Shown here: positions 66-55,660 of the stretch, one piece after another
How positions within the stretch are numbered: the first letter of the stretch is position 1
How the letters are laid out: every line of letters begins with the position of its first letter
Assembly (NCBI GenBank): GCA_964639295.1
Contig: CAZXDT010000003.1
Coordinates: 1,304-65,303 of the forward strand
Source: an uncultured Candidatus Saccharibacteria bacterium
GTDB taxonomy: Bacteria > Patescibacteriota > Saccharimonadia > Saccharimonadales > JALRHH01
DNA: 64,000 nucleotides
Reading direction: 5' to 3'
Notes under the pieces: model-generated
Databases searched by the model: none
Seen by the model: the letters and a program-made list of their open reading frames with translations, nothing else
Told to the model about the DNA's origin: nothing
Program-made: the position numbers and the translations under genes

Positions 66-1385
66 TTAGAAAGTCGTTGTTGCTATGAAGTCTGCTTGTA
101 CAGTATACGCACCTGTTGGGGTCGTAATACCTGACAGAGCTGCAAACTTCAGGATGAGTGCTTCGTCATCAACCACTTTTACTGCTGAACCTGTTGAGGT
201 CGCGATGGTTGTGGTGTTAGCAGGGTTCGCATCCCAGGCGTAACCACCGTTAGTGGTACCACCGACTTGATCACTATCTGTTACGAATGTACCGGTACCG
301 TTACCATCATAGACTCCATCACGGACCATGTTACAGCCCGAACCGCCAGAAGCACATGTGTAAGCACTGGTGCTACCACCGTTGATACCGGCAATAGTCA
401 TACCGAACTTTTCGCCACTAATACCGACCGTGAATGCACCTTGTGAAGCACTTGTATTGAAACACTGGTCAGTGGTACTAGTAGAGACTGGGGAAGCAGT
501 ACAGGTTGCACCGGGCACTTTGAGGGAGCCAGAGCTGGTCTCTGAAAGCGAGTGATATGCAATACTCGCACCGTTAAAGGCGTTTGTACGGATCATCGCT
601 ATCGCGTTGGTGTTACTACCACCGTTAGTTGTACTCACCGGAGACACGTTAGTAGCACTGCTATCGATGTTACCGATATCAACACTAGAGGTACCAGCAA
701 GGGTGACTGCTGCACAGTCTGCACCAGGTGTCGTAGTATCGGTGTTAACTGTTGTTGATGCCACACAGAAGTCTAGACGTTCCTGGACACGTGCGTTGAC
801 GGTCAAGGTCTGTGAAGTACTTTGTGCGAAGACACCTTCCCACTTGAGGGTTGTACCGGTATCTGAGTAGATACGCATACGAGTGTAGTAGCTCTTGTTT
901 GGAGTTGTGTTGTTAACAATATCTGATGCACCTAGAGTGATCTTAAGTGCTGTTTTGCTTGTTGCATCGTCGGCAGTTGTCTTATCAAACTGAATTTGGT
1001 TATTAGAACCACCGCCTAGACCGTTTTCACGAGTAGTTGTCCCACCTGTTGAGGTCCATGGACCAGACAATGTGGCAGTTGGTGAAAGAGCGATTGTTGG
1101 TGTATTAACTGTAGTACAGGTAGTTAGTGGCGTGTCACAGAACTGAATTTCAATATAGTCTGCGTTGGCTGTGTCTGCAGTGGTATTAAATGTCCACTCT
1201 AGCTGGGTTGTTTGGCTAGGACGTGCACTAGTTGATGTTAGGTTGCGAGATAACAGTGTTGGAGCAGCAGACGCTGAACCGGTTATTAAAACCGGGGCTA
1301 CAGCAGCAAACGTCAAGACTAAGGCTGATAGCCCTGCTTGCGCCCTGCGGGAGAGATCCCGGAAACGATCTATATACACACTCAT
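66..1385 (-). CDS. Secreted Thr/Ser-rich surface protein, tandem paralog 1 (439 aa)
   Basis: Long ORF. N-terminal hydrophobic signal-like segment (..ITGSASA/AP). Paralogous to the 1779..3104 product, with an identical central block. AAGGAAA RBS-like sequence upstream. Confidence 0.8.
   Translation of the reverse strand: MSVYIDRFRDLSRRAQAGLSALVLTFAAVAPVLITGSASAAPTLLSRNLTSTSARPSQTTQLEWTFNTTADTANADYIEIQFCDTPLTTCTTVNTPTIALSPTATLSGPWTSTGGTTTRENGLGGGSNNQIQFDKTTADDATSKTALKITLGASDIVNNTTPNKSYYTRMRIYSDTGTTLKWEGVFAQSTSQTLTVNARVQERLDFCVASTTVNTDTTTPGADCAAVTLAGTSSVDIGNIDSSATNVSPVSTTNGGSNTNAIAMIRTNAFNGASIAYHSLSETSSGSLKVPGATCTASPVSTSTTDQCFNTSASQGAFTVGISGEKFGMTIAGINGGSTSAYTCASGGSGCNMVRDGVYDGNGTGTFVTDSDQVGGTTNGGYAWDANPANTTTIATSTGSAVKVVDDEALILKFAALSGITTPTGAYTVQADFIATTTF
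508..845. repeat. 338-bp tract 100% identical to 2221-2558 (inside paralog 1)
   Basis: Manual line-by-line comparison. Identity starts at gcaccgggc and ends at cccactt. Flanking sequence is only about 80% identical. Confidence 0.9.
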
Positions 1386-1515
1386 TTTGTTTTTCCTTTT
1401 ATATACTTTGTTTATTTTTTAGTATTAATGACCTATTTTTACCATAATACTCTGGGTAAACGCAAGCACTTTCACAGCATAGTTTTCCACAGGTAAGCAC
1501 TGAGGTGCACGCACT

Positions 1516-1666
1516 CCACACTTGAGATCATTTGGATTTGTTTGAGCGAAACGTAAAGGAGCCGTACTTAGGTACGGTGACTGTGTATCGTAAGCAAACA
1601 AATTCGAAGGAGCCAAGAGGCTGGCGGGTTACAAGCTCAGCTTGTAAGCAGGCCAGCCGGTGTGGG
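1516..1666 (+). ncRNA. Family-1 structured intergenic element, copy A (candidate ncRNA or REP-like repeat)
   Basis: Closing stem CCACAC/GTGTGG; hairpin GCCGTAC-ttag-GTACGGT; terminal hairpin GGCTGGC..TTACAAGCT-ca-AGCTTGTAA..GCCAGCC. Homologous to copies at 27247, 37809 and 61161. Confidence 0.6.
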
Positions 1667-1680
1667 GTGTGTTTGCAGTA

Positions 1681-1720
1681 AATAAATAAACGCCCTCTGC
1701 AATTATATGCAGGGGCGTTT
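1681..1720 (-). terminator. Rho-independent terminator after paralog 2
   Basis: - strand stem cgcccctgca/tgcagagggcg followed by tttatttatt. Confidence 0.75.
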
Positions 1721-1778
1721 ATTACCCGTTAGCTGAACTATGTCAGGATGGGATTTGATTAACCTAAAACATTCGTAC

Positions 1779-3104
1779 TTAGAAAGTAGCAGTTGCTATA
1801 AAGTCTGCTTGCACAGTGTACGAACCAGTTGGTGTCGTAATACCTGACAGAGCTGCAAACTTTAGAATCAATGCTTCGTCGTCGATAACCTTTACTGCTG
1901 AACCAGTTGAGGTCGCGATGGTTGTCGTGTTAGCAGGATCTGCGTCCCAGGCATAACCACCATTTGTGGTGCCAGCTACTTGGTCGATATCAGTTACGAA
2001 TGTACCTGTACCGTTGCCGTCGTATGCTCCATCACGGACTACATTACAACCTACGCCACCAGCGGCACATGTGTATGCACTGGTGCTACCACCGTTGATG
2101 CCGGCAATGGTCATACCGAATTTCTCACCGGTTGTACCAACTATAAATGCGCCTTGTGATGCACTTGTGTTGAAACATTGGTCAGTTGTACTTGTAGATA
2201 TTGGAGAAGCAGTACAAGTCGCACCGGGCACTTTGAGGGAGCCAGAGCTGGTCTCTGAAAGCGAGTGATATGCAATACTCGCACCGTTAAAGGCGTTTGT
2301 ACGGATCATCGCTATCGCGTTGGTGTTACTACCACCGTTAGTTGTACTCACCGGAGACACGTTAGTAGCACTGCTATCGATGTTACCGATATCAACACTA
2401 GAGGTACCAGCAAGGGTGACTGCTGCACAGTCTGCACCAGGTGTCGTAGTATCGGTGTTAACTGTTGTTGATGCCACACAGAAGTCTAGACGTTCCTGGA
2501 CACGTGCGTTGACGGTCAAGGTCTGTGAAGTACTTTGTGCGAAGACACCTTCCCACTTCAAACTCGTAGCAGGGTTGTCGTCGTAGATACGTACACGTGT
2601 GTAGTACGACTTGTTGACTGCTGCATTGTTAGTAATGTCAGCTGCACCAAGCGTAATTTTTAGTGCCGTTTTACTTGTTGCATCGTCGGCATTGGTCTTA
2701 ACGATATCAATCTGGTTATTTAAACCGTTAGATGATGCCGTACGACCATCCACTCGCGTGGTCGAGGTAACCGCAGTACTCGTCCACGGACCCGACAGTG
2801 TGGCAGTTGGTGCTATAGCAACACTTGGCGTGTTTACGGTTGTACACGTACCAAGCGGGCTGTCACAGAACTGGATTTCGATTGTCTTTGCATTCGCAGT
2901 ATCAGCCGTAGTATTGAACGTCCACTCTAATTGAGTGTTCGTCGAGGGTTGGGCACTCGTAGATGTAAGCATACGAGATGTAATGGTCGGAGCAGCTCCT
3001 GCTGTCGCTGGCAAAAGTGCTGGCAACACTCCAACTGCCCCAAGAATTACAACCTTAGTCCACAACGATACCCTACGCATTTGTAGAGTTATGTTTTGAG
3101 ACAT
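1779..3104 (-). CDS. Secreted Thr/Ser-rich surface protein, tandem paralog 2 (441 aa from the AAGGAG-preceded ATG)
   Basis: Long ORF. The ATG at 3104 is preceded by AAGGAG; the ORF track starts 21 nt upstream at 3125. Has a signal peptide and is a paralog of the 66..1385 product. Confidence 0.8.
   Translation of the reverse strand: MSQNITLQMRRVSLWTKVVILGAVGVLPALLPATAGAAPTITSRMLTSTSAQPSTNTQLEWTFNTTADTANAKTIEIQFCDSPLGTCTTVNTPSVAIAPTATLSGPWTSTAVTSTTRVDGRTASSNGLNNQIDIVKTNADDATSKTALKITLGAADITNNAAVNKSYYTRVRIYDDNPATSLKWEGVFAQSTSQTLTVNARVQERLDFCVASTTVNTDTTTPGADCAAVTLAGTSSVDIGNIDSSATNVSPVSTTNGGSNTNAIAMIRTNAFNGASIAYHSLSETSSGSLKVPGATCTASPISTSTTDQCFNTSASQGAFIVGTTGEKFGMTIAGINGGSTSAYTCAAGGVGCNVVRDGAYDGNGTGTFVTDIDQVAGTTNGGYAWDADPANTTTIATSTGSAVKVIDDEALILKFAALSGITTPTGSYTVQADFIATATF
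2221..2558. repeat. 338-bp tract 100% identical to 508-845 (inside paralog 2)
   Basis: Same manual comparison. The identical spurious + strand ORFs 552..758 and 2265..2471 in the ORF track confirm it. Confidence 0.9.
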
Positions 3105-3379
3105 ATAGTTCTCCTTAATTAACATACGTGGTGCGCACAGAGAGCCTGCATATCTTAGGATCTGGATTTAATAACAAGCAAGAGAAGCCTTCAAGCACAC
3201 GAACTAGACCAATTATATGGATTCGTTTTACTAACGGCGTCGCAAGCTGTCACTTTAGCGTCGCATATGTTTGATTTATATTGATTGTTTTTGTTTTAGG
3301 TTAATATGCACACTATTCATACCATATTATTGTGCATTAGCACAAGCAGTTATCCACAGATACACGTATCCCCTACTAC

Positions 3380-4126
3380 CTAATATGTTCCGCTCACCAC
3401 AACATCATGAACCATAACATACGTCCCGGCTGGCGTAATAGCACTCACATTTGCAATGTAGGAAATAGTGTAGTCAGTTCGTCCAACCGCTTGATTGCCT
3501 GCTGTCGCTGCAGAATGCGCAATAATATCACCCACACCATATTTAAACTGATTCACGGTGTTATAGCCGGCATTTACGGTGCCATCTGCAAAGCTATTAT
3601 CAGGAACATTTAATGAGTTTGCCCCGATATCTGGGCTTGAGTTATCTACTAGATTAATACCAAACTCTTCTGTTCCGGGTATAGGAGCACCCAGACTTGA
3701 TTTAGCAGCAAGCACCCTACCGCCTTCGCTTGTTGGGGGCTGGCTCATAGTCTGTACGACATATGCACTTGAGAGGTACGTTCGTACCCAAAAGGTTCCC
3801 GATCCCGTACCAGTTGTGCTGGTATCCAGATTGCCCAAATCAACTGTTGCGCTATTAATAAATAATTCAAGGAACGGTTCTGATGGAGTAATAAATCCAG
3901 CTTCAGCATCATAATTTGTACTTGATGATCTACCTACACCAAGTGAGCCAACATTACTCTGTGCCTGAAAGTTACTTGATGAAGAGTTACCCCCACCTGT
4001 ACCAAACTGATATTCATTGACCTTGTAGCTATTGGACGAAGACTCTTGTGCAAAGACAGGTACTTGAACAGCGAGTATCAATATCGCTAGTAAAAGTGTG
4101 TGTTTAAGTATCTGTTTCCGCCACAT
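3380..4126 (-). CDS. Secreted protein, unknown function (248 aa)
   Basis: Signal peptide MWRKQILKHTLLLAILILAVQVPVFAQ. The C-terminal strand motif ITPAGTYVMVHDVVVSGTY resembles the C-termini of the two paralogs. Confidence 0.75.
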   Translation of the reverse strand: MWRKQILKHTLLLAILILAVQVPVFAQESSSNSYKVNEYQFGTGGGNSSSSNFQAQSNVGSLGVGRSSSTNYDAEAGFITPSEPFLELFINSATVDLGNLDTSTTGTGSGTFWVRTYLSSAYVVQTMSQPPTSEGGRVLAAKSSLGAPIPGTEEFGINLVDNSSPDIGANSLNVPDNSFADGTVNAGYNTVNQFKYGVGDIIAHSAATAGNQAVGRTDYTISYIANVSAITPAGTYVMVHDVVVSGTY

Positions 4127-4159
4127 AATTTATCACTATTCTAGCATAACCAGTGTTGT

Positions 4160-4858
4160 TTAGCGGGTTTCGAATGTCTCGACGATATTGTCAAAGTCAC
4201 CGGCCGTAGGCTGTGCGGTAAGGTTTCTGTAAGTAATGCGGTATGTTGCAGTACCTCCACCTGGCCTACTAAGTACCATTGCATCAGTCCCGCCTACCAA
4301 TCCCGCAACCGCAACATAGTTTGATGTGTCAGGATTACAAATAAACGTAACTTCTTTGAATGTAAGTACGAGTGTGTGTCGGCTACTGTTTGGCTTAAGC
4401 CCAGTTCTACAGTGATCTGATACGGTGCCTTTGGGTGTCAGTTTACCGCTCTTAGAGGCAGTTACTGGGAGAACGCGGCTCGTCTGAGCAGCATCGAGCG
4501 TAACCGGGGACTCTTGGTTAATATCAATAGTTAGATCCTGTTCAATAAGTGGACCGTTGTATTGCCTGTATACAAAGTGGTTCGAACGACTTTCATTGGC
4601 AATTGCCCGCCATTTCTTTGAAGTTTGAAACTGGAAATAAGGGCTGGACTGTAACTGGGTATCAGCGACGATGAGTGAAGTTACGGCTTTGCTTTCATTA
4701 GAAGCTTCTTCGGATTTATTGTTATTGGCGATAATGTCATACGCAAAGAAACCCCCGCCAACTAACAAGCCAAAAATAATCAATGCCCAGACATAGCGTA
4801 GTTTGCGCAAGAACCGCTTGCGGCTATGGAAGCCTTGTTCTCGGTAGTAGCTCGACAT
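4160..4858 (-). CDS. N-terminally membrane-anchored protein, unknown function
   Basis: Start chosen at ATG 4858, preceded by GAGAGGGAAG; the ORF track extends to 4930. One TM segment (VWALIIFGLLVGGGFFAY). Confidence 0.7.
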   Translation of the reverse strand: MSSYYREQGFHSRKRFLRKLRYVWALIIFGLLVGGGFFAYDIIANNNKSEEASNESKAVTSLIVADTQLQSSPYFQFQTSKKWRAIANESRSNHFVYRQYNGPLIEQDLTIDINQESPVTLDAAQTSRVLPVTASKSGKLTPKGTVSDHCRTGLKPNSSRHTLVLTFKEVTFICNPDTSNYVAVAGLVGGTDAMVLSRPGGGTATYRITYRNLTAQPTAGDFDNIVETFETR

Positions 4859-5155
4859 CTGTTCTTCCCTCTCGGGACCCCCATATGGATTTACTGCCAT
4901 TATTGCACACAACACTAAAAACACAACCACTTACGAGGAGGGGTTGTTAAAGTGTGTACGCAACGCTGAACTGCAAAACAAGCTGAGAACGGTCAGTCAG
5001 AAGTTCAAAAATGTGCTTTACAGTGTCCAGTAATGTTTGTGTTGTTTGTACCAAATGTACCGTAGCATATTTTTACTACAAGCACAAGCGTGACTGATTG
5101 CGGTTATGTTTTTGACTGCAAACATAGTATTATTGATGCAAGAAGACCAGAGGCC

Positions 5156-6154
5156 ATGGATAATAAATCAGAAGATACAAATCAGCCAGAAAAACCTGAG
5201 AACACTGAGCCAGTGTCCGGTTCAAGCAACGCTGAAGGCGAAAGCCTTGAAGGCAGTACTGATGCAACTGCGTCTTCTGATGTAAAAGTAAGCGCGCCAA
5301 AACAAAGCATTGGTAAGCGTATTCAGGGACTCATAACAGGCTTGAACATCTACCTTATACTGTTTATTTTCATCGTGGTACTTGCCGCAGGTATCGTTAT
5401 GATTGGCATTCAGAAAAACAAAAAAGCTGCCACGCCAACTACTGTTAACACCCAGACGCTATCCGCTGACGAACTCAAGAAAATCGCCGAAAGCGAACAA
5501 AAAGTTGGCGATCCTAAGTCAACGCTATCTATCGAATCTAATGCTATCTTCAGCGGTAAAGTACTGATCCGTGACAGTTTAGACGTTGCGGGAACTATCA
5601 AGGTGGGTGGGGCATTGAGTCTACCAGGCATTAGCGTGTCCGGGGAGAGTAGCTTCGACCAGATCAAAGCTAACAACCTAACTATTACCGGTAACACGGC
5701 TATCCAAGGTCAATTAAGTATCCAAAAGGGTATAACCAGCAGTGGCGGTGCAAGCTTTGGTGGACCTATCTCTGCCCCTATCTTGACGGTTCAGAGCCTA
5801 CAAATCAGTGGTGATTTACAGATCACTCGACATATTGACGCAGGTGGTGGCACACCAGGAAAGGTAGATGGCAGTTCGTTAGGATCTGGCGGAACCGTAT
5901 CTATTAGTGGTAGCGACACAGCTGGGACAATAACCATCAATACCGGTGGTGGCCCGGGTGCAGGTTGTTTCGTGACCGTTAACTTCACGCAGAAATTCAG
6001 TGGCAATCCACACGTTGTTGTATCCCCTGTTGGTTCAGGTGCGGCGTCACTCCAGTACTACATAAACCGAAACAGCAGTAACTTTAGCCTCTGCACCGCC
6101 AATGCCCCAGGTGGTGGCCAAAGCTTCTCATTCGACTACATAGCCATCGACTAA
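5156..6154 (+). CDS. Membrane-anchored protein with Gly-rich beta-helix-like repeats
   Basis: ORF. ATG 5156 is preceded by AGAGG; the ORF track starts at GTG 5090. One TM segment, then repeated G-x-L/I-x-V/I-x-G motifs. Confidence 0.7.
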   Translation: MDNKSEDTNQPEKPENTEPVSGSSNAEGESLEGSTDATASSDVKVSAPKQSIGKRIQGLITGLNIYLILFIFIVVLAAGIVMIGIQKNKKAATPTTVNTQTLSADELKKIAESEQKVGDPKSTLSIESNAIFSGKVLIRDSLDVAGTIKVGGALSLPGISVSGESSFDQIKANNLTITGNTAIQGQLSIQKGITSSGGASFGGPISAPILTVQSLQISGDLQITRHIDAGGGTPGKVDGSSLGSGGTVSISGSDTAGTITINTGGGPGAGCFVTVNFTQKFSGNPHVVVSPVGSGAASLQYYINRNSSNFSLCTANAPGGGQSFSFDYIAID

Positions 6155-6177
6155 TCTAACACCTCACAAAGGGTTCT

Positions 6178-6293
6178 GAGCTTGAGTGTAGCTTGGGATG
6201 CTCATCGAGGCTTGACCTTGAGGCGTACTAAAAGTACGGCGAAAGGTCAGACGTAAGATAAGCGCCCAAGATGCGCCAAGGTCTGAAGCCGCC
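6178..6293 (+). ncRNA. Family-1 element, divergent/truncated copy E
   Basis: CTTGAG..TTGGGAT head. Stem GACCTT/AAGGTC encloses hairpin CGTAC-taaaa-GTACG. Then ACGTAAG and GCGC-ccaagat-GCGC. The long 3' hairpin is missing. Confidence 0.4.
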
Positions 6294-6294
6294 T

Positions 6295-6618
6295 TTAGAT
6301 ATCGAGAAAAACCACGACTTCGTCAGCTTTTACATGCATAATCCCACGCGCAATCTTAATATGCTCCTCATTATCATCCGTACGCACAATAATATCGCCT
6401 GAGTTTAGCAATGTCATGAAGTTGTGGTGCTTGGGCAATATGTCGAAAGTACCGGTATCGTTCACACCGGAAATACTGTTTGCCTCACCGTCAAAATACA
6501 CTTTAAATGGTGCATAGACCTTGACGTGCATCGTCTTGCCGTCAACTCGCGATTCAGGAATTGCGGCATTGGTAGCGGTATCTTTATGCTCGACAGGTTT
6601 GTTGTCATCTTCTGGCAT
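6295..6618 (-). CDS. atpC: F1 ATP synthase epsilon subunit
   Basis: Last gene of the atp operon. Epsilon-like beta-sandwich sequence (ILPKHHNFMTLL...). The true start may be the internal MHVKVY. Confidence 0.8.
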   Translation of the reverse strand: MPEDDNKPVEHKDTATNAAIPESRVDGKTMHVKVYAPFKVYFDGEANSISGVNDTGTFDILPKHHNFMTLLNSGDIIVRTDDNEEHIKIARGIMHVKADEVVVFLDI

Positions 6619-24931: not shown

Positions 24932-25312
24932 TGGTGGAGCTGGCGGGGTACCGCCCCCCGCGTCCGCTAGTTTATCTAATTAGTCTATCCTACAGGTATA
25001 GTTTGCTTGAATACAACATGGAGTGAAAGCAAACAAAAGTCCACGAGGTTTGATCCTTGTCTTAGTCCGACTACGGATCAATTGCCGGAAGCATCCAGAA
25101 ATATATGTTACGACTAGTGCTATCTGGCGTCACTCTAGGCGCAGCTGTAGGCAATTAAGCTACAGCGAAAGCAGGCTCAGGGAACAAACGTGCCTTGAGG
25201 TCTGCAATCAAAGAAGTGCGATCTGCAATTACTTTGAGTTTGTCTATAACGCTGACAAGCGACCTGCTGATCTAACTGATAAAGTCCAACGTCGAGCTTA
25301 AAATTCAGCCCC
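24932..25312 (-). ncRNA. ssrA: tmRNA (SsrA)
   Basis: 5' GGGGCTGAATTTTAAGCTCGACG. 3' ...CCCCGCCAGCTCCACCA. Acceptor stem with a G3-U pair. Internal tag ORF ...ADRTSLIADLKARLFPEPAFAVA-TAA. Confidence 0.9.
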
Positions 25313-37400: not shown

Positions 37401-37534
37401 GATCTCGAGGGGAGTCGAGTCACCTTCGGCGACCCCGCGACTTCTACCATGAAAGCACAGCTTTCAGGTGAAGATCACCTTGCGAATTGCCACTGGCAAT
37501 TCTCACCCTGTTACCGGTAACAGGAGTTCGAGTC
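37401..37534 (-). other. E1: tRNA-Glu 3'-half-derived composite module with an 87-nt structured insert
   Basis: Four parts: an inverted partial tRNA copy; a direct copy (palindrome CCTGTTACCGGTAACAGG, 37507-37524); the insert at 37419-37505; and an exact 18-nt tRNA 3' end at 37401-37418. Confidence 0.7.
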
Positions 37535-37540
37535 ACAAAT

Positions 37541-37570
37541 ACCAAAACAAAAACCCCAGACTAGCTGGGG
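37541..37570 (-). terminator. tRNA-Glu terminator
   Basis: CCCCAG-ctagt-CTGGGG followed by TTTTTGTTTT on the - strand. Confidence 0.8.
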
Positions 37571-37579
37571 CTCTTGTTT

Positions 37580-37654
37580 TGGTGATCTCGAGGGGAGTCG
37601 AACCCCTGTTACCAGGATGAAAACCTGGTGTCCTAACCGTTAGACGACGAGACC
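37580..37654 (-). tRNA. tRNA-Glu(UUC), CCA encoded
   Basis: Manual cloverleaf: GGTCTCG acceptor stem, anticodon loop TTTTCAT, T-arm GGGGTTCGACTCCCC. Confidence 0.95.
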
Positions 37655-37968: not shown

Positions 37969-39378
37969 TTAGCTACGACGAGCTAACACAAGGCGGTGAG
38001 CCATAGCACCAGCTACTGTAATAGCAGCAAAGATACCAAGGATATCGCCAGCACCAGTATCTACCAACTTAGTTGGAGTCTCTGGAGTGTTGTAGTTTAC
38101 TTTACCTTCACATACGCTTGTCTGATCAACGTCATTAACATTGAATCGAACAGTTGCGGTAAGTGAATATTCACCATCTTCGGCGTATGTGTGCTCTACA
38201 TTTGCTACCTTGTCAGTAACAAGTGGCGTAGAACCATCACCAAAGTCGTATGTTACGTTCTTGAACGTAACACCGTTCTTGGCAGTGTACTTAACACCGA
38301 GGTTGACCTTACGGCCATCAAGCTTAGCAACCTGCAAGAGATCACACTTGTACTCGGGAGCTGTAGTTACACAATCCTTTTGTACGTTAACCGTCGCAGA
38401 GTCGTTGTATTGACCAGTTTGGTCAGTATCAACAACTGCGATGTTCTTGATGTTGTTCATGCCACAAGCAAGACTTGTGCCTGGGTCTACTGTTGCCACA
38501 AATGTGATCAACGCAGAAGCACCTGGCAAGAGTGTGCCGACATTTTTACGGCCACTGAAGAAAGCGTTTGCTTCATCAGCAGTCATAACCGTACCATTGT
38601 ATGAACCGTAAAACTTCTTGGCTGTGCCAGGGACGAATGTTACGCCCTTTGGAAGTGGGTCACGGAGGTATACGTTAGTAAGGTTTGTGTTACTCAAGTT
38701 CTTAGCTTGAACAATGTATTCAACACGAGCACCAGGCTGTGCAACTAAGTTGTCAGTAGCCTGAGTTGTGCCACCTTCATTGTGCACGTACTTGTAGATA
38801 CCAACTGATGGGATCTTAACACGAGCCATGAAAGTAACGGTTGCTTCGAACTCGTGACAAGGCTTAACATCTTCAATAACTGCACCACTAAGGATAATGC
38901 TATCGTTGATTTGCTGTGTCACAAGGTTCTGGTCGGTACGAGTACCAACGTTGTGCTTCCAGTAGACGCTACCAGGAATAAATTCTAGGTTAGCGTCTGC
39001 ACGGTTTAAGTTAACCGTAGCGGTGTCGGTAATGGTGTTGGTGTTATCACCCTTCATCGTTACCTTTACAACTTGGTTCGTACCAGCAGCAGTTGGCATA
39101 TCAATCTTGATTTTAAAGTTTTCCGCAACACGGTTAGATTCCGGTAGTTCGCGGTTGTGGTAGTAGACAGAGAATTTTACAACTTCGTCATACTTCGCAT
39201 TTGTGCTTGTCTTGTATGTAGTTTCACCAGTAGTCTGGTTGGCTACGCCAATAGATCCTTCCATGAGGACATCAACTGCCATCACAGAGTGGATTGGAAG
39301 TGCAATCAAAGCAAGTAATGTAACCATAAATAGGCTCACTCGCTTTGGAGCACGCTTTAGGTATGAAAATAGTTTCAT
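37969..39378 (-). CDS. Cell-surface repeat protein (DUF11-like beta-sandwich) with a C-terminal sorting-signal-like tail
   Basis: Signal peptide. C-terminus LVDTGAG, then a hydrophobic stretch, then RLVLARRS. AAGGAG RBS. Confidence 0.8.
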   Translation of the reverse strand: MKLFSYLKRAPKRVSLFMVTLLALIALPIHSVMAVDVLMEGSIGVANQTTGETTYKTSTNAKYDEVVKFSVYYHNRELPESNRVAENFKIKIDMPTAAGTNQVVKVTMKGDNTNTITDTATVNLNRADANLEFIPGSVYWKHNVGTRTDQNLVTQQINDSIILSGAVIEDVKPCHEFEATVTFMARVKIPSVGIYKYVHNEGGTTQATDNLVAQPGARVEYIVQAKNLSNTNLTNVYLRDPLPKGVTFVPGTAKKFYGSYNGTVMTADEANAFFSGRKNVGTLLPGASALITFVATVDPGTSLACGMNNIKNIAVVDTDQTGQYNDSATVNVQKDCVTTAPEYKCDLLQVAKLDGRKVNLGVKYTAKNGVTFKNVTYDFGDGSTPLVTDKVANVEHTYAEDGEYSLTATVRFNVNDVDQTSVCEGKVNYNTPETPTKLVDTGAGDILGIFAAITVAGAMAHRLVLARRS

Positions 39379-51419: not shown

Positions 51420-51496
51420 GGGCCAGTAGCTCAGCTGGTTAGAGCACCTGCCTCTTAAGCAGGGTGTCGAGGGTTCGAGTCCCTCCTGGCCCTCCA
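51420..51496 (+). tRNA. tRNA-Lys(CUU), CCA encoded
   Basis: Manual cloverleaf: GGGCCAG acceptor stem, anticodon loop CTCTTAA, T-arm GAGGGTTCGAGTCCCTC. Confidence 0.95.
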
Positions 51497-51544: not shown

Positions 51545-51688
51545 TGGACTCGAATTCTCGACACGCCAAAGGGTGTCGAGGTGAGAACTGCCTGTGGCAG
51601 TTCGCAAGGGAGCCAACTCTTGCAAACTGGTTTGCAAAGATGTTGCGACGGGTCGGCTGAAAGTCGGTCGAGTCCCTCCTGGCCCTCC
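51545..51688 (+). other. E2: tRNA-Lys 3'-half-derived composite module with an 86-nt structured insert
   Basis: Four parts: an inverted partial copy at 51545-51563; a direct 12-nt copy at 51569-51580; the insert at 51581-51666; and an exact 22-nt tRNA 3' end including CCA at 51667-51688. Confidence 0.7.
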
Positions 51689-51852
51689 AGATGGCTTGCG
51701 CAAACTCAATGTTCCTCCCGGCTCTCCAAGCATAAGCATCATAAAAGGCTTCTCGCTAGTAGGGGTAGCCGAGGGCTACAGAGTAATTTTACCGGGTTGT
51801 TCTAATACAACGCCCTTCATTAGAGAAGTCGAATCCTTGGTGTTTTTAACTA

Positions 51853-55404: not shown

Positions 55405-55432
55405 AAACGACCAGCTTACGCTGGTCGTTTTT
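55405..55432 (+). terminator. Hairpin terminator (bidirectional form)
   Basis: AAACGACCAGC-ttac-GCTGGTCGTTT followed by TT. Confidence 0.75.
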
Positions 55433-55523
55433 GGTACACCGGGCTGGGTAGTGCACATCTTTAGCCATGCTCGGTGCGAGCACCTGCGCGTGGCTTTGAT
55501 GACCGAACCATGGATCGAGTCCA
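55432..55523 (-). other. E3: degenerate second copy of the tRNA-Arg 3' part
   Basis: Contains GGACTCGA. CAGGTGCTCGCA resembles tRNA CAGGTGTCGCA. It ends CCGGTGTACCA, versus CCGGGTGTACCA in the tRNA. Confidence 0.45.
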
Positions 55524-55545
55524 GGCTCGATAAATCGAGTTGAAA

Positions 55546-55583: not shown

Positions 55584-55660
55584 TGGTACACCCGGCAAGA
55601 TTCGAACTTGCGACACCTGGTTCCGAAGACCAGTGCTCTAATCCACTGAGCTACGGGTGC
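55584..55660 (-). tRNA. tRNA-Arg(UCG), CCA encoded
   Basis: Manual cloverleaf: GCACCCG acceptor stem, anticodon loop CTTCGGA, T-arm GCAAGTTCGAATCTTGC. Confidence 0.95.

Follow-up and report, generated by a model that had tools for sequence, protein, structure and literature searches.

R1 cassettes: structured inserts joined to partial and antisense copies of adjacent tRNA genes in Candidatus Saccharibacteria

Introduction

The attC sites of integrons and the attP(+) site of CTX-phi are imperfect inverted repeats that fold as single strands and thereby imitate a double-stranded recombination site. In attC the repeats have the form R''-L''/L'-R', and each such site closes a gene cassette that lacks a promoter, in the neighborhood of intI. 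Structured noncoding RNA (ncRNA) is encoded at the element end in IS110/IS1111, as bridge (seek) RNA, and in IS200/IS605, as omega-RNA; these RNAs combine a scaffold with sequence that matches the target or the donor, and in transposon omega-RNAs the scaffold and the flanking sequence together make the guide. IS200/IS605 elements insert immediately after a fixed motif of 4–5 nucleotides, with all target bases retained. In the tRNA-linked repeats of Escherichia coli, the last ~19 nucleotides (nt) of a transfer RNA (tRNA) are repeated downstream in the transcription unit, which yields a small RNA (rtT RNA). Integrative elements that target tRNA genes include classes with a crossover in the T-loop and those piled up in arrays, as described for the tycheposons of Prochlorococcus (bioRxiv 10.1101/2020.12.28.424599), and tRNA genes may be split, permuted or intron-containing in Archaea (PMC3218864) or carry group I introns in Patescibacteria (PMC13011429). 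Here we describe two tRNA-linked modules, E1 and E2, within a stretch of 64,000 nt (the window) of contig CAZXDT010000003.1 from an uncultured Candidatus Saccharibacteria bacterium (GCA_964639295.1), together with the structured element common to both, which we name R1. In each module, R1 interrupts a partial copy of the adjacent tRNA gene, and an antisense copy of the uninterrupted target segment (the splint) is also present. We are highly confident that the R1 family and the anatomy of its cassettes are real; as to their nature, we tentatively favor gene-less cassettes that integrate at tRNA genes and have a functional structured-RNA core.

None of the systems that we compared combines a covarying insert, flanks copied from a tRNA gene and an antisense copy of the target, and in this respect the architecture of the R1 cassette is new. 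A full-text search of the literature on Saccharibacteria and Patescibacteria found no description of it, and each known family considered fails at least one testable defining feature. As with integrative elements that target tRNA genes, an intact tRNA is followed by a direct repeat of its distal part, partial tRNA copies form arrays, and certain islands are bracketed by repeats. The R1 cassettes differ from such elements in that they are gene-less in ~95% of cases, with a unit size of 150–250 bp; in that the repeat is interrupted by a covarying structured domain and accompanied by an antisense target copy; and in that R1 also occurs in the D-arm, anticodon loop and variable region, as well as upstream of the tRNA, with two target nt missing rather than shared.

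The resemblance to attC and CTX-phi attP(+) lies in the retention of structure over sequence, a strict strand polarity and an association with cassette-like cargo. However, the arms of an R1 cassette are copied from a tRNA gene, its large domain is an internal branch at the crossover rather than the tip of a hairpin, and an RNA form is at least as likely as single-stranded DNA. Identity as an integron attC site was rejected because the cassettes lie beside tRNA genes, mostly contain no open reading frame (ORF), and have tRNA copies as arms. As in bridge and omega-RNAs, the specificity of an R1 cassette could be re-programmed by nucleic acid, but no DEDD recombinase, TnpA, TnpB or IscB is adjacent, R1 is much smaller and has no Rfam match, and its guide-like segments are fully paired in cis, unlike the internal-loop guides of bridge RNAs. 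An IS110-type bridge RNA was rejected on these grounds (no DEDD/RuvC-like recombinase adjacent in the window or in the inspected islands; target-matching segments fully paired), as was a miniature IS200/IS605 element or omega-RNA (loose motif, two target nt lost, no TnpB-like domain in the scanned ORFs). The E. coli rtT repeats differ from R1 cassettes, which have a structured insert, an antisense splint and an upstream mirror form, and there is no sequence relation; the Rfam RtT family does not match R1 cassettes. Split and intron-containing tRNA genes are similar in that the tRNA is interrupted in its loops, including non-canonical positions, and in that complementary sequences join the exon ends, but the interrupted copy in R1 cassettes is incomplete, an intact copy is adjacent, and there is neither a bulge-helix-bulge motif nor a group I core.

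Results and Discussion

Anatomy of the E1 and E2 Cassettes

E1 lies on the minus strand behind an intact tRNA-Glu(UUC) gene, from which all of its tRNA-derived parts come, and consists of a splint, a left flank, the R1 insert and a right flank (Table 1). A first-pass annotation made from the letters of the window had recognized these four parts, and all of them were confirmed in the sequence, including the span of the insert; only the last base of the insert is ambiguous, being at the same time the first retained base of the tRNA. The splint covers the variable-loop and T-arm segment across the insertion site and is identical to the reverse complement of the tRNA at 17 of 19 positions. Its 3' half pairs with the left flank, which is one G shorter than the tRNA, and the two together form the perfect palindrome (CCTGTTACCGGTAACAGG) that had been described as an inverted plus a direct copy. 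The first ~8 nt of the right flank, which extends to the acceptor end without the final ACCA, can pair with the 5' half of the splint. Between the two flanks, R1 replaces two nt in the T-loop of the tRNA-Glu 3' fragment with a three-hairpin domain, U-GAGAA-P1-UUCGCAAGG-P2-CGGG-P3, in which P3 contains a conserved G·U pair; its terminal loop, first read as GNRA, is a GAA triloop closed by a variable pair.

E1 therefore comprises the three components by which we define an R1 cassette: a match to the R1 covariance model, a partial tRNA copy and an antisense splint. As in an attachment (att) site, it also contains an exact 18-nt direct repeat of the distal tRNA segment; between the tRNA repeats, both in E1 and in E2, there is only a terminator and a splint. 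The earlier statement that E1 is not a tRNA gene is borne out, given that the sequence contains no 5' acceptor strand, D arm or anticodon arm; a cloverleaf is absent, and ARAGORN and the Rfam tRNA model call only the intact tRNA-Glu in this region.

The sister cassette E2, behind tRNA-Lys(CUU) on the plus strand, has the same order of parts. The proposed homology of the two inserts holds: they share a 28-nt core at 25 of 28 positions, with one compensatory T-A to C-G change among the differences, and both match a covarying model built from relatives. A degenerate form of the core has two matches in the window, compared with none expected in 100 shuffles, and a search of the window with the covariance-model filters off found no third R1 copy. 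Both modules as a whole fold more stably than shuffled sequence (E1, z = -3.8; E2, z = -4.5). The structure that RNAfold predicts for E2 is a five-way junction that would be closed by the splint 5' half and the right flank, with the splint 3' half and the left flank forming a hairpin and P1, P2 and P3 branching off.

Table 1. Coordinates of tRNA-linked cassettes and associated features in the 64,000-nt window.
Feature	Position	Strand	Basis or description
tRNA-Glu(UUC), intact	37580–37654	-	ARAGORN; Rfam tRNA model, 63.4 bits
Intrinsic terminator of tRNA-Glu	37542–37570	-	CCCCAGCTAGTCTGGGG + T-run, between tRNA and cassette; sequence; terminator scan
E1 splint	37516–37534	-	GACTCGAACTCCTGTTACC; antisense copy of uninterrupted tRNA segment, ~nt 42–60
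E1 left flank	37506–37515	-	GGTAACAGGG; sense copy of variable loop + T-stem 5' strand, tRNA nt 42–51
E1 R1 insert, 87 nt	37419–37505	-	Covariance model, 96.6 bits, E = 6e-18; family covariation
E1 right flank, 18 nt	37401–37418	-	TCGACTCCCCTCGAGATC; exact tRNA copy, T55 to acceptor end, nt 55–71 of 75
tRNA-Lys(CUU), intact, partner of E2	51420–51496	+	ARAGORN; Rfam tRNA model
E2 cassette	51546–51689	+	Covariance model, 83.6 bits, E = 3e-15; same part order as E1
E2 splint	51546–51564	+	
E2 loop		+	GCCAAAG, between splint and left flank
E2 left flank	51572–51581	+	
E2 R1 insert	51582–51668	+	
E2 right flank	51668–51689	+	Through CCA
tRNA-Arg(UCG), partner of E3	55584–55660		
E3 cassette	55432–55541	-	Insert family F3; after tRNA-Arg(UCG)

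R1 Fold and Selection on Structure

A relaxed form of the core pattern was scanned against species-representative genomes and returned at least 120 stretches (loci numbered with the prefix L), nearly all from Candidatus Saccharibacteria/Saccharimonadales and a few from metagenome-assembled genomes (MAGs) labeled Parcubacteria, Woesebacteria or "Patescibacteria group." A match in a Calothrix MAG contig was taken as a candidate mis-binning, and one in L085, where the sequence has no visible cassette, as a candidate chance match. The core pattern had no matches in 2.9 million viral contigs, and a phage origin was rejected on this basis.

The R1 covariance model was built from 65 typical relatives, the consensus of which is U-GAGAA-(P1: YUGCC WGU GGCAR)-UUCGCAAGG-(P2: long variable hairpin with the tip CUNUG)-CGGG-(P3: 7 bp with a GAA triloop). 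RNAalifold predicted 32 pairs on the 65-copy alignment, 20 of which show compensatory double changes. Pair cells are formed in 98.1% of instances on this structure, compared with 26–45% when the partners are slid by 1–3 columns, and double-change cells number 352 vs. 22–32 in the slid controls; no shuffle attained the observed covariation score. One P3 pair is G·U in 54 of the 65 copies and the outermost P3 pair in 29; both would be A·C mismatches on the opposite strand, which indicates that the folding strand has the polarity of the tRNA. The R1 insert and its closing helix are under purifying selection, which is contrary to the earlier suggestion of an att scar.

Invariant nucleotides cluster at the helix junctions. 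The invariant CAAG after P1 (alignment columns 24–27) is complementary to the nearly invariant P2 tip CU(N)UG (columns 48–52), and a tertiary loop-to-junction pairing between the two is possible from their sequences; both being invariant, covariation cannot probe this pairing. A longer "type B" variant, with a different P2 and an extended P3, has a lower model score and is clearly related. Hammerhead and other small ribozyme motifs were sought in P2 by eye and rejected, P2 being a long covarying hairpin. Pairwise distances between inserts are ~0.30–0.32 in all classes, without clustering by tRNA type or genome, and the nearest-neighbor insert lies beside the same tRNA in 8 of 97 cases vs. 4.2 expected.

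Distribution and Cassette Layout

The covariance model identified at least 142 R1 copies in 120 Patescibacteria loci, mostly of Saccharibacteria. The question raised in the first-pass annotation, whether matches to the core accompany tRNA genes, can be answered in the affirmative: nearly all follow or precede a tRNA, with 106 of 144 copies no more than 100 nt from a tRNA called by ARAGORN and most of the others at locus ends. The neighboring tRNAs represent at least 15 amino-acid specificities. Among 97 well-scoring copies near a tRNA, 94 share its strand, 65 of them downstream and 29 upstream, and three are downstream and antisense, all of these at tRNA-Phe (a co-orientation of 94:3). The insertion sites assigned are 48 in the T-loop, two in the anticodon loop and one in the variable region for the downstream co-oriented copies; 11 in the T-loop, nine in the D-arm, and three each in the anticodon loop and variable region for the upstream copies; and three in the variable region for the antisense copies. 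A specificity for T-loops, as E1 and E2 had suggested, is thus not upheld, given the sites in other loops, upstream and in antisense. In the tRNA-Phe(GAA) loci (L010, L027, and L064), R1 is antisense to the tRNA-derived flanks and occupies variable-region positions 45–49; in L027, R1 is enclosed by a perfect ~64-nt direct repeat (terminator plus tRNA nt 50–76), which suggests a recent event.

The flanks of R1 are copies of the adjacent tRNA, and among 68 clean cases there are 65 in which the model match replaces exactly three tRNA nt. Since the match ends in the same base as the third tRNA nt replaced, U plus ~86 nt effectively replace two target nt, the lost dinucleotide being GT, TT, CG, GC, AG or GA. 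The base preceding the insert is G in all clean cases, and the motif is otherwise loose. The flank on the tRNA side is short (median 12 nt in downstream and 10.5 nt in upstream cassettes). The flank distal to the intact tRNA is long: in downstream cassettes it attains the tRNA 3' end in 39 of 57 cases, often together with a second terminator, and in upstream cassettes it begins at tRNA nt 1 or covers at least the whole 30 nt examined. In 18 of the 57 downstream cassettes the distal tRNA tail is cut to 8–15 nt, yet R1 scores 95–100 bits. The outer tail is therefore dispensable, and the conserved unit consists of the splint, the short flank, R1 and ~10 nt of the long flank; the trimming of the tail with the insert intact also runs counter to the idea that the module mimics a tRNA by means of a free 3' acceptor strand.

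A splint that spans the uninterrupted insertion site, beyond the short flank, is recognizable in 42 of 47 downstream cassettes; in upstream cassettes it is shorter and lies on the 3' side of the right flank. Because this inverted copy extends across the uninterrupted site and is paired with both flanks in nearly every cassette, it does not represent a by-product. Splint bases that face the junction drift (C to T, A or G) and the paired parts are retained, which points to selection on the intramolecular helix rather than on complementarity to the intact tRNA. As a gauge of pairing at the RNA level, G·U and A·C were counted in the helix between splint and flanks; they number 43 vs. 27, an excess too modest, and in too imperfect a register, to be decisive. 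In certain tRNA-Pro/tRNA-Val cassettes (L060, L054, L044, L004, L045, and L065) the left flank has diverged to purine-rich GAGGAGG, GGAGGGG or GTGAAGG, with the splint still matching the tRNA, so that part of the splint would be unpaired there.

In the R1-bearing loci, which were chosen for containing R1 and therefore give occupancy fractions that are biased upward, 107 of 175 tRNAs have an R1 within 130 nt. Among 83 scanned tRNAs without a downstream R1, 27 are followed by a splint or by a copy of the tRNA 3' end.

Conservation, Turnover and Signs of Recombination

The gene order FolD, tRNA-Lys(CUU), E2 is syntenic with that of L017, where FolD is only 52% identical. E2 and the L017 cassette can be aligned from splint to CCA, including the hairpin loop GCCAAAG, which is not tRNA-derived, and around them neither the preceding terminator and spacer nor the following DNA is alignable. 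Where the tRNA T-stem differs between the two loci (GAGGG/CCCTC to CGGGG/CCCCG), both flanks and the splint have changed accordingly. The cytidylyltransferase locus beside E1 presents a different history, with relatives at 71–78% protein identity that differ in occupant, side and presence: R1 is downstream of tRNA-Glu(UUC) in the window, upstream in the D-loop with a different structured insert downstream in L122, and replaced by a third insert family at a tRNA-Glu(CUC) in L129; L121 contains a 3' remnant only, and L128 no tRNA at all.

Tandem cassettes occur behind one tRNA in L094, L118, L068, and L016. Among eight loci with two R1 copies or a mixed array, the distal copy is lower-scoring in five (L016, L068, L091, L113, and L115), similar in two and higher in one. 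Nested ("twin") R1 elements were identified in L021 (249–408), L045 (7669–7829, minus strand) and L053 (1710–1884, minus strand); in these, a complete second copy stands straight after the CGGG of the first, in place of the P3 of the first copy. The nesting occurs at the same G|GU context as the T-arm site, indicating that the GGG|GU motif of R1 itself behaves like a target site. Whole cassettes are also found as direct repeats around a 2.6-kb island in L017, inside which there is an S24/LexA-like repressor, and around a 1.5-kb island in L037 containing two small membrane or secreted proteins.

The recombinases for tRNA T-loops that the first-pass annotation had proposed to look for are represented in relatives by large serine recombinase genes. 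In L096, a 4.2-kb island starts beside tRNA-Gln with such a gene (1888–3597, minus strand; domains Resolvase, Recombinase and Zn_ribbon_recom). A HEPN-like gene lies within the island, whose other end is formed by an R1 cassette and, behind it, a tRNA-Gln 3' end; this is the only R1 cassette locus with a recombinase gene between tRNA repeats. Related genes are encoded in L071 (1105–2673, minus strand) and L099 (5401–6096, minus strand), and all three abut the 3' end of a tRNA-Gln or tRNA-Gly. At its far junction, the L071 island (~1127–6457) has a plain repeat of the tRNA that starts in the T-loop and runs up to the 3' end; T-loops of tRNAs thus appear to be the integration sites of this recombinase clade. 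We also considered whether R1 could serve as the P arm of a serine-recombinase attP and rejected this on account of the same junction, which contains no R1; the similarity of the junction to the R1 3' end is not significant (p ~0.08) and does not exceed that of all inserts. Likewise rejected was R1 as a serine-recombinase mini-circle, given that inverted repeats are lacking at its ends and that the insertion removes the target dinucleotide instead of duplicating it.

Two further arrangements were noted. L088 (6876–6920) and L108 (downstream of tRNA-Gln 4188–4262, minus strand) contain bare repeats of the last ~19 nt of tRNA-Gln, 14–24 nt from the tRNA and without a structured insert; they could represent minimal att repeats or the footprints of excision. 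In L028 (1511–1635), from a Patescibacteria MAG, the P1 core recurs with a period of 92 nt (P1, a different P2 and TATACAGTCCCTGTAAGGT); the sequence of this locus is incomplete, and the pattern looks like a head-to-tail array of a shortened variant.

Other Insert Families With the Same Layout

The cassette layout (splint, optional short flank, insert, copy of the tRNA 3' end, terminator) is generic and is shared by several insert families. F2 inserts (L122, 2325–2460; L016, 4534–4610, minus strand) begin with the hairpin GGATATGCC-AGT-GGCATATCC, which resembles P1 of R1 and suggests a superfamily; in L016, a single tRNA-Val is followed by F2 and a decayed R1 cassette in tandem. Family F3, with the signature CACGCGCAGGTGCTCGCACCGAGCA, is represented in L103, L112, and L129 and in the window by E3 (Table 1). 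The latter was considered as a third R1 copy and rejected as belonging to a different insert family; its structured segment finishes with CCCGGTGTACCA, which nearly reproduces the 3' end of tRNA-Arg, a terminator of its own comes next, and the core of the insert (CGCGCAGGTGCTCGCACCGAGCA) recurs behind other tRNAs in L103, L112, and L129. F4 inserts have a P1-like GAAAACAGCC-NNN-GGCTGTTTGAG, then TTTTCCTTGCTTGGCC and a further domain, and end in a copy of the tRNA 3' end; they were identified 40–200 nt downstream of tRNAs in L080 (tRNA-Arg tct), L114, L077, L081, L036, and L048. Searches with Rfam 15 gave no match over the R1, F2 and F3 cassettes of nine loci (E ≤ 0.01). For E1, the earlier assessment that its layout matches no catalogued RNA family stands even at E ≤ 10, and E2 is likewise unmatched at this cutoff. 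Identity as a known RNA family was accordingly rejected, since Rfam over the window, the E1 region and the nine loci, at the gathering threshold and at permissive E-values, yielded only tRNA, transfer-messenger RNA (tmRNA) and RNase P.

Expression

Upstream cassettes that begin at tRNA nt 1 have a mean promoter-like score of 7.48 out of 12, equal to that of intact tRNAs, compared with 5.42 for random positions; scores of 9 or more were obtained for 33% of upstream cassettes and 29% of intact tRNAs vs. 4% of random positions. These promoter-like sites favor an RNA product, as do the G·U pairs that exist on one strand only and the co-orientation of 94:3. We infer that the active form of R1 is most likely an RNA made by transcription of the tRNA gene; a folded single-stranded DNA (ssDNA) may also be compatible with the computed evidence. 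The gene that follows E1 has its own promoter (TTGACA-17-TAATGT) between E1 and the start codon, and a riboswitch or cis-regulatory leader was rejected for this reason and because E1 lies behind the tRNA terminator.

Proposed Mechanism of Integration at tRNA Genes

The mechanism set out here is proposed with moderate to low confidence. It starts from the anatomy shown above, in which R1 folds as a single strand of tRNA polarity and the splint pairs with the two flanks, closing R1 into a multi-helix junction that imitates the double-stranded target site, with the insert looped out at the crossover. Cassettes would arise and spread through recombination at a loop of the tRNA gene. The incoming unit, putatively a small circle, would carry the distal part of a tRNA with a terminator or promoter, a splint, a short flank and the insert; recombination would rebuild an intact tRNA from the copy on the unit and displace the old tRNA end beyond the insert. 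Repeated events would then give arrays in which the older copies are distal, and units bearing cargo would give islands. R1 and the splint/flank hairpin would serve as the recognition or guide component, and a recombinase encoded elsewhere would catalyze the reaction in trans. The topology of the duplications, the arrays and the islands are as expected from a unit recombining at a tRNA loop, and a role of R1 and the hairpin in recognition or guiding would explain why they are conserved while the outer tRNA tail decays. Among the three ideas offered in the first-pass annotation, a miniature non-autonomous integrative element and a guide-like RNA remain the best fits.

Several points weigh against integrating cassettes of this kind. 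The absence of an integrase from the window, already recorded in the first-pass annotation, was corroborated: no recombinase is encoded among the 18 ORFs checked, a tblastn search of the window with a large serine recombinase was negative, and across the family only one of ~97 cassettes is linked to such a gene. Moreover, the L071 recombinase does not need R1, as its far junction demonstrates. R1 copies within a genome are as diverged as those between genomes (~0.3 differences per site), with no sign of recent bursts. The retention of the E2 cassette at the FolD locus, at 52% protein identity and with an unalignable spacer, fits a host-beneficial RNA at least equally well. One sequence-reading protein cannot serve at least 15 tRNAs and four loop positions, and specificity guided by nucleic acid would therefore be needed. 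The model also leaves unaccounted for the acquisition of another splint and other flanks when the target changes, and the loss of exactly two nt. Lastly, the promoter scan found no promoter-like site belonging to E1 or E2, which are situated behind the tRNA terminator.

A more specific version of the integrating cassette, which we regard as rather unlikely, is a self-contained recombination system guided by nucleic acid, in which R1 would be the scaffold, the flanks the donor junction and the antisense splint the guide, all on one RNA or ssDNA. If so, a generic enzyme acting in trans would insert small DNA units into loops of any tRNA gene and the tRNA would be rebuilt; the reduced Patescibacteria genomes would then contain a naturally re-programmable form of integration that differs from IS110 bridge RNAs.

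Alternative Explanations

The alternative that survives best, possible although less probable than the integrating cassette, is that R1 and the other insert families are small RNAs beneficial to the host and transcribed with the tRNA as a leader or read-through trailer. The splint/flank helix would then be a processing or stability stem, similar to the RNase III stems that flank rRNAs; R1 would be a regulatory RNA that binds a protein or ligand, consistent with the aptamer-like placement of invariant nucleotides at helix junctions; and the tRNA-derived sequence would be an accident of local duplication. Such a role would be in keeping with the strong purifying selection on structure, with the preservation of the entire E2 cassette (loop GCCAAAG included) at the FolD locus amid randomized spacer, and with the fact that the majority of copies are intact, few are decayed and none form within-genome bursts. 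It would also accommodate the co-orientation of 94 of 97 cassettes with the tRNA, the promoters kept in upstream cassettes, and the presence of a cassette at more than half of the tRNAs in the R1-selected loci, and it fits the lack of a linked enzyme in ~95% of cassettes as well as the unexplained acquisition of splints and loss of two nt. However, a host RNA leaves unexplained the dozens of independent antisense copies of the cassette's own tRNA across the insertion site, the flanks that track the tRNA sequence, and the arrays, nesting, bracketed islands and swaps of insert family at orthologous loci; in addition, downstream cassettes stand behind an intrinsic terminator without a promoter of their own.

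Improbable by comparison is a guide RNA for a nuclease or Argonaute-like effector, with R1 as the scaffold and the tRNA-derived flank or the splint as the guide, whereby the effector would cut foreign DNA bearing the uninterrupted tRNA segment, for example at the attP of tRNA-integrating elements. An 87-nt multi-hairpin scaffold that abuts 10–22 nt of target-derived sequence has the look of such a guide, strand polarity is strict, and elements that integrate at the tRNA T-loop are present in these genomes. But no TnpB-, IscB- or Cas-like gene lies beside any cassette examined, the 3' flank is dispensable beyond ~10 nt, the candidate guides are base-paired in cis, and the chromosomal tRNA gene itself would be a target.

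Slightly less probable still is an antisense switch acting on maturation of the cassette's own tRNA, in which a change in R1 would free the splint from its decoy flanks to pair with the nascent tRNA. The splint is complementary to the intact tRNA over 17–25 nt and tracks its changes, and upstream cassettes are co-transcribed with the tRNA. The drifting splint bases, however, are those at the center of the would-be duplex; two thirds of the cassettes are downstream of the tRNA and its terminator, where the tRNA would already have folded; and the insert is antisense to the tRNA in three genomes.

Two remaining explanations appear very improbable. An intron or other intervening sequence of the tRNA gene is suggested by the location of R1 in tRNA loops, by the complementary strand that aligns the flanks in the manner of an internal guide, and by the richness of Patescibacteria in tRNA introns (PMC13011429), but it is largely refuted: removal in silico, with 12 junction fillings for each copy, gave a complete tRNA by ARAGORN for one copy out of 144, the intact tRNA is always present beside the cassette, Rfam intron models were unmatched (E ≤ 10 around E1, E ≤ 0.01 in the nine loci), 87 nt is far below the size of group I or group II introns, and the tRNA introns described in Patescibacteria belong to group I and interrupt the anticodon loop at position 35/36 (PMC13011429). 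An inert scar of a lost integrative element (an attR remnant or pseudo-tRNA) would account for the tRNA 3' end that recurs downstream as a direct repeat and has parallels in the plain repeats of L088, L108, and the L071 attR, but it applies to the outer tRNA tail alone; selection is evident from the compensatory changes and from the conserved G·U pair, and the cassette is kept at the FolD locus amid randomized neighboring DNA.

Other Features of the Window

The product of the gene upstream of tRNA-Glu (37969–39378, minus strand) is 469 aa long, contains DUF11 and PKD domains and is likely a surface protein; its ortholog varies in position among relatives. Elsewhere in the window there is a one-piece tmRNA gene (24932–25312, minus strand; Rfam RF00023, 59.1 bits).

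Implications for Saccharibacteria

Saccharibacteria are ultrasmall and host-dependent, and normally shed non-essential DNA. In organisms of this kind, the occupancy of more than half of the tRNAs in the R1-selected loci suggests that the cassettes are probably useful or else very good at persisting. In either case, they account for the recurrent and confusing partial-tRNA matches near tRNA genes in these genomes, and the R1 covariance model could join RNA family databases. If the cassettes are host RNAs, they would represent a new and abundant class of ncRNA, with at least four related insert families, born from tRNA genes and expressed with them. If they are mobile, they would be the smallest known elements that target tRNA genes, with the choice of target residing in nucleic acid rather than in protein, and this would be relevant to tools for genome engineering and to the routes by which gene islands reach Patescibacteria genomes that are poor in classical mobile elements.

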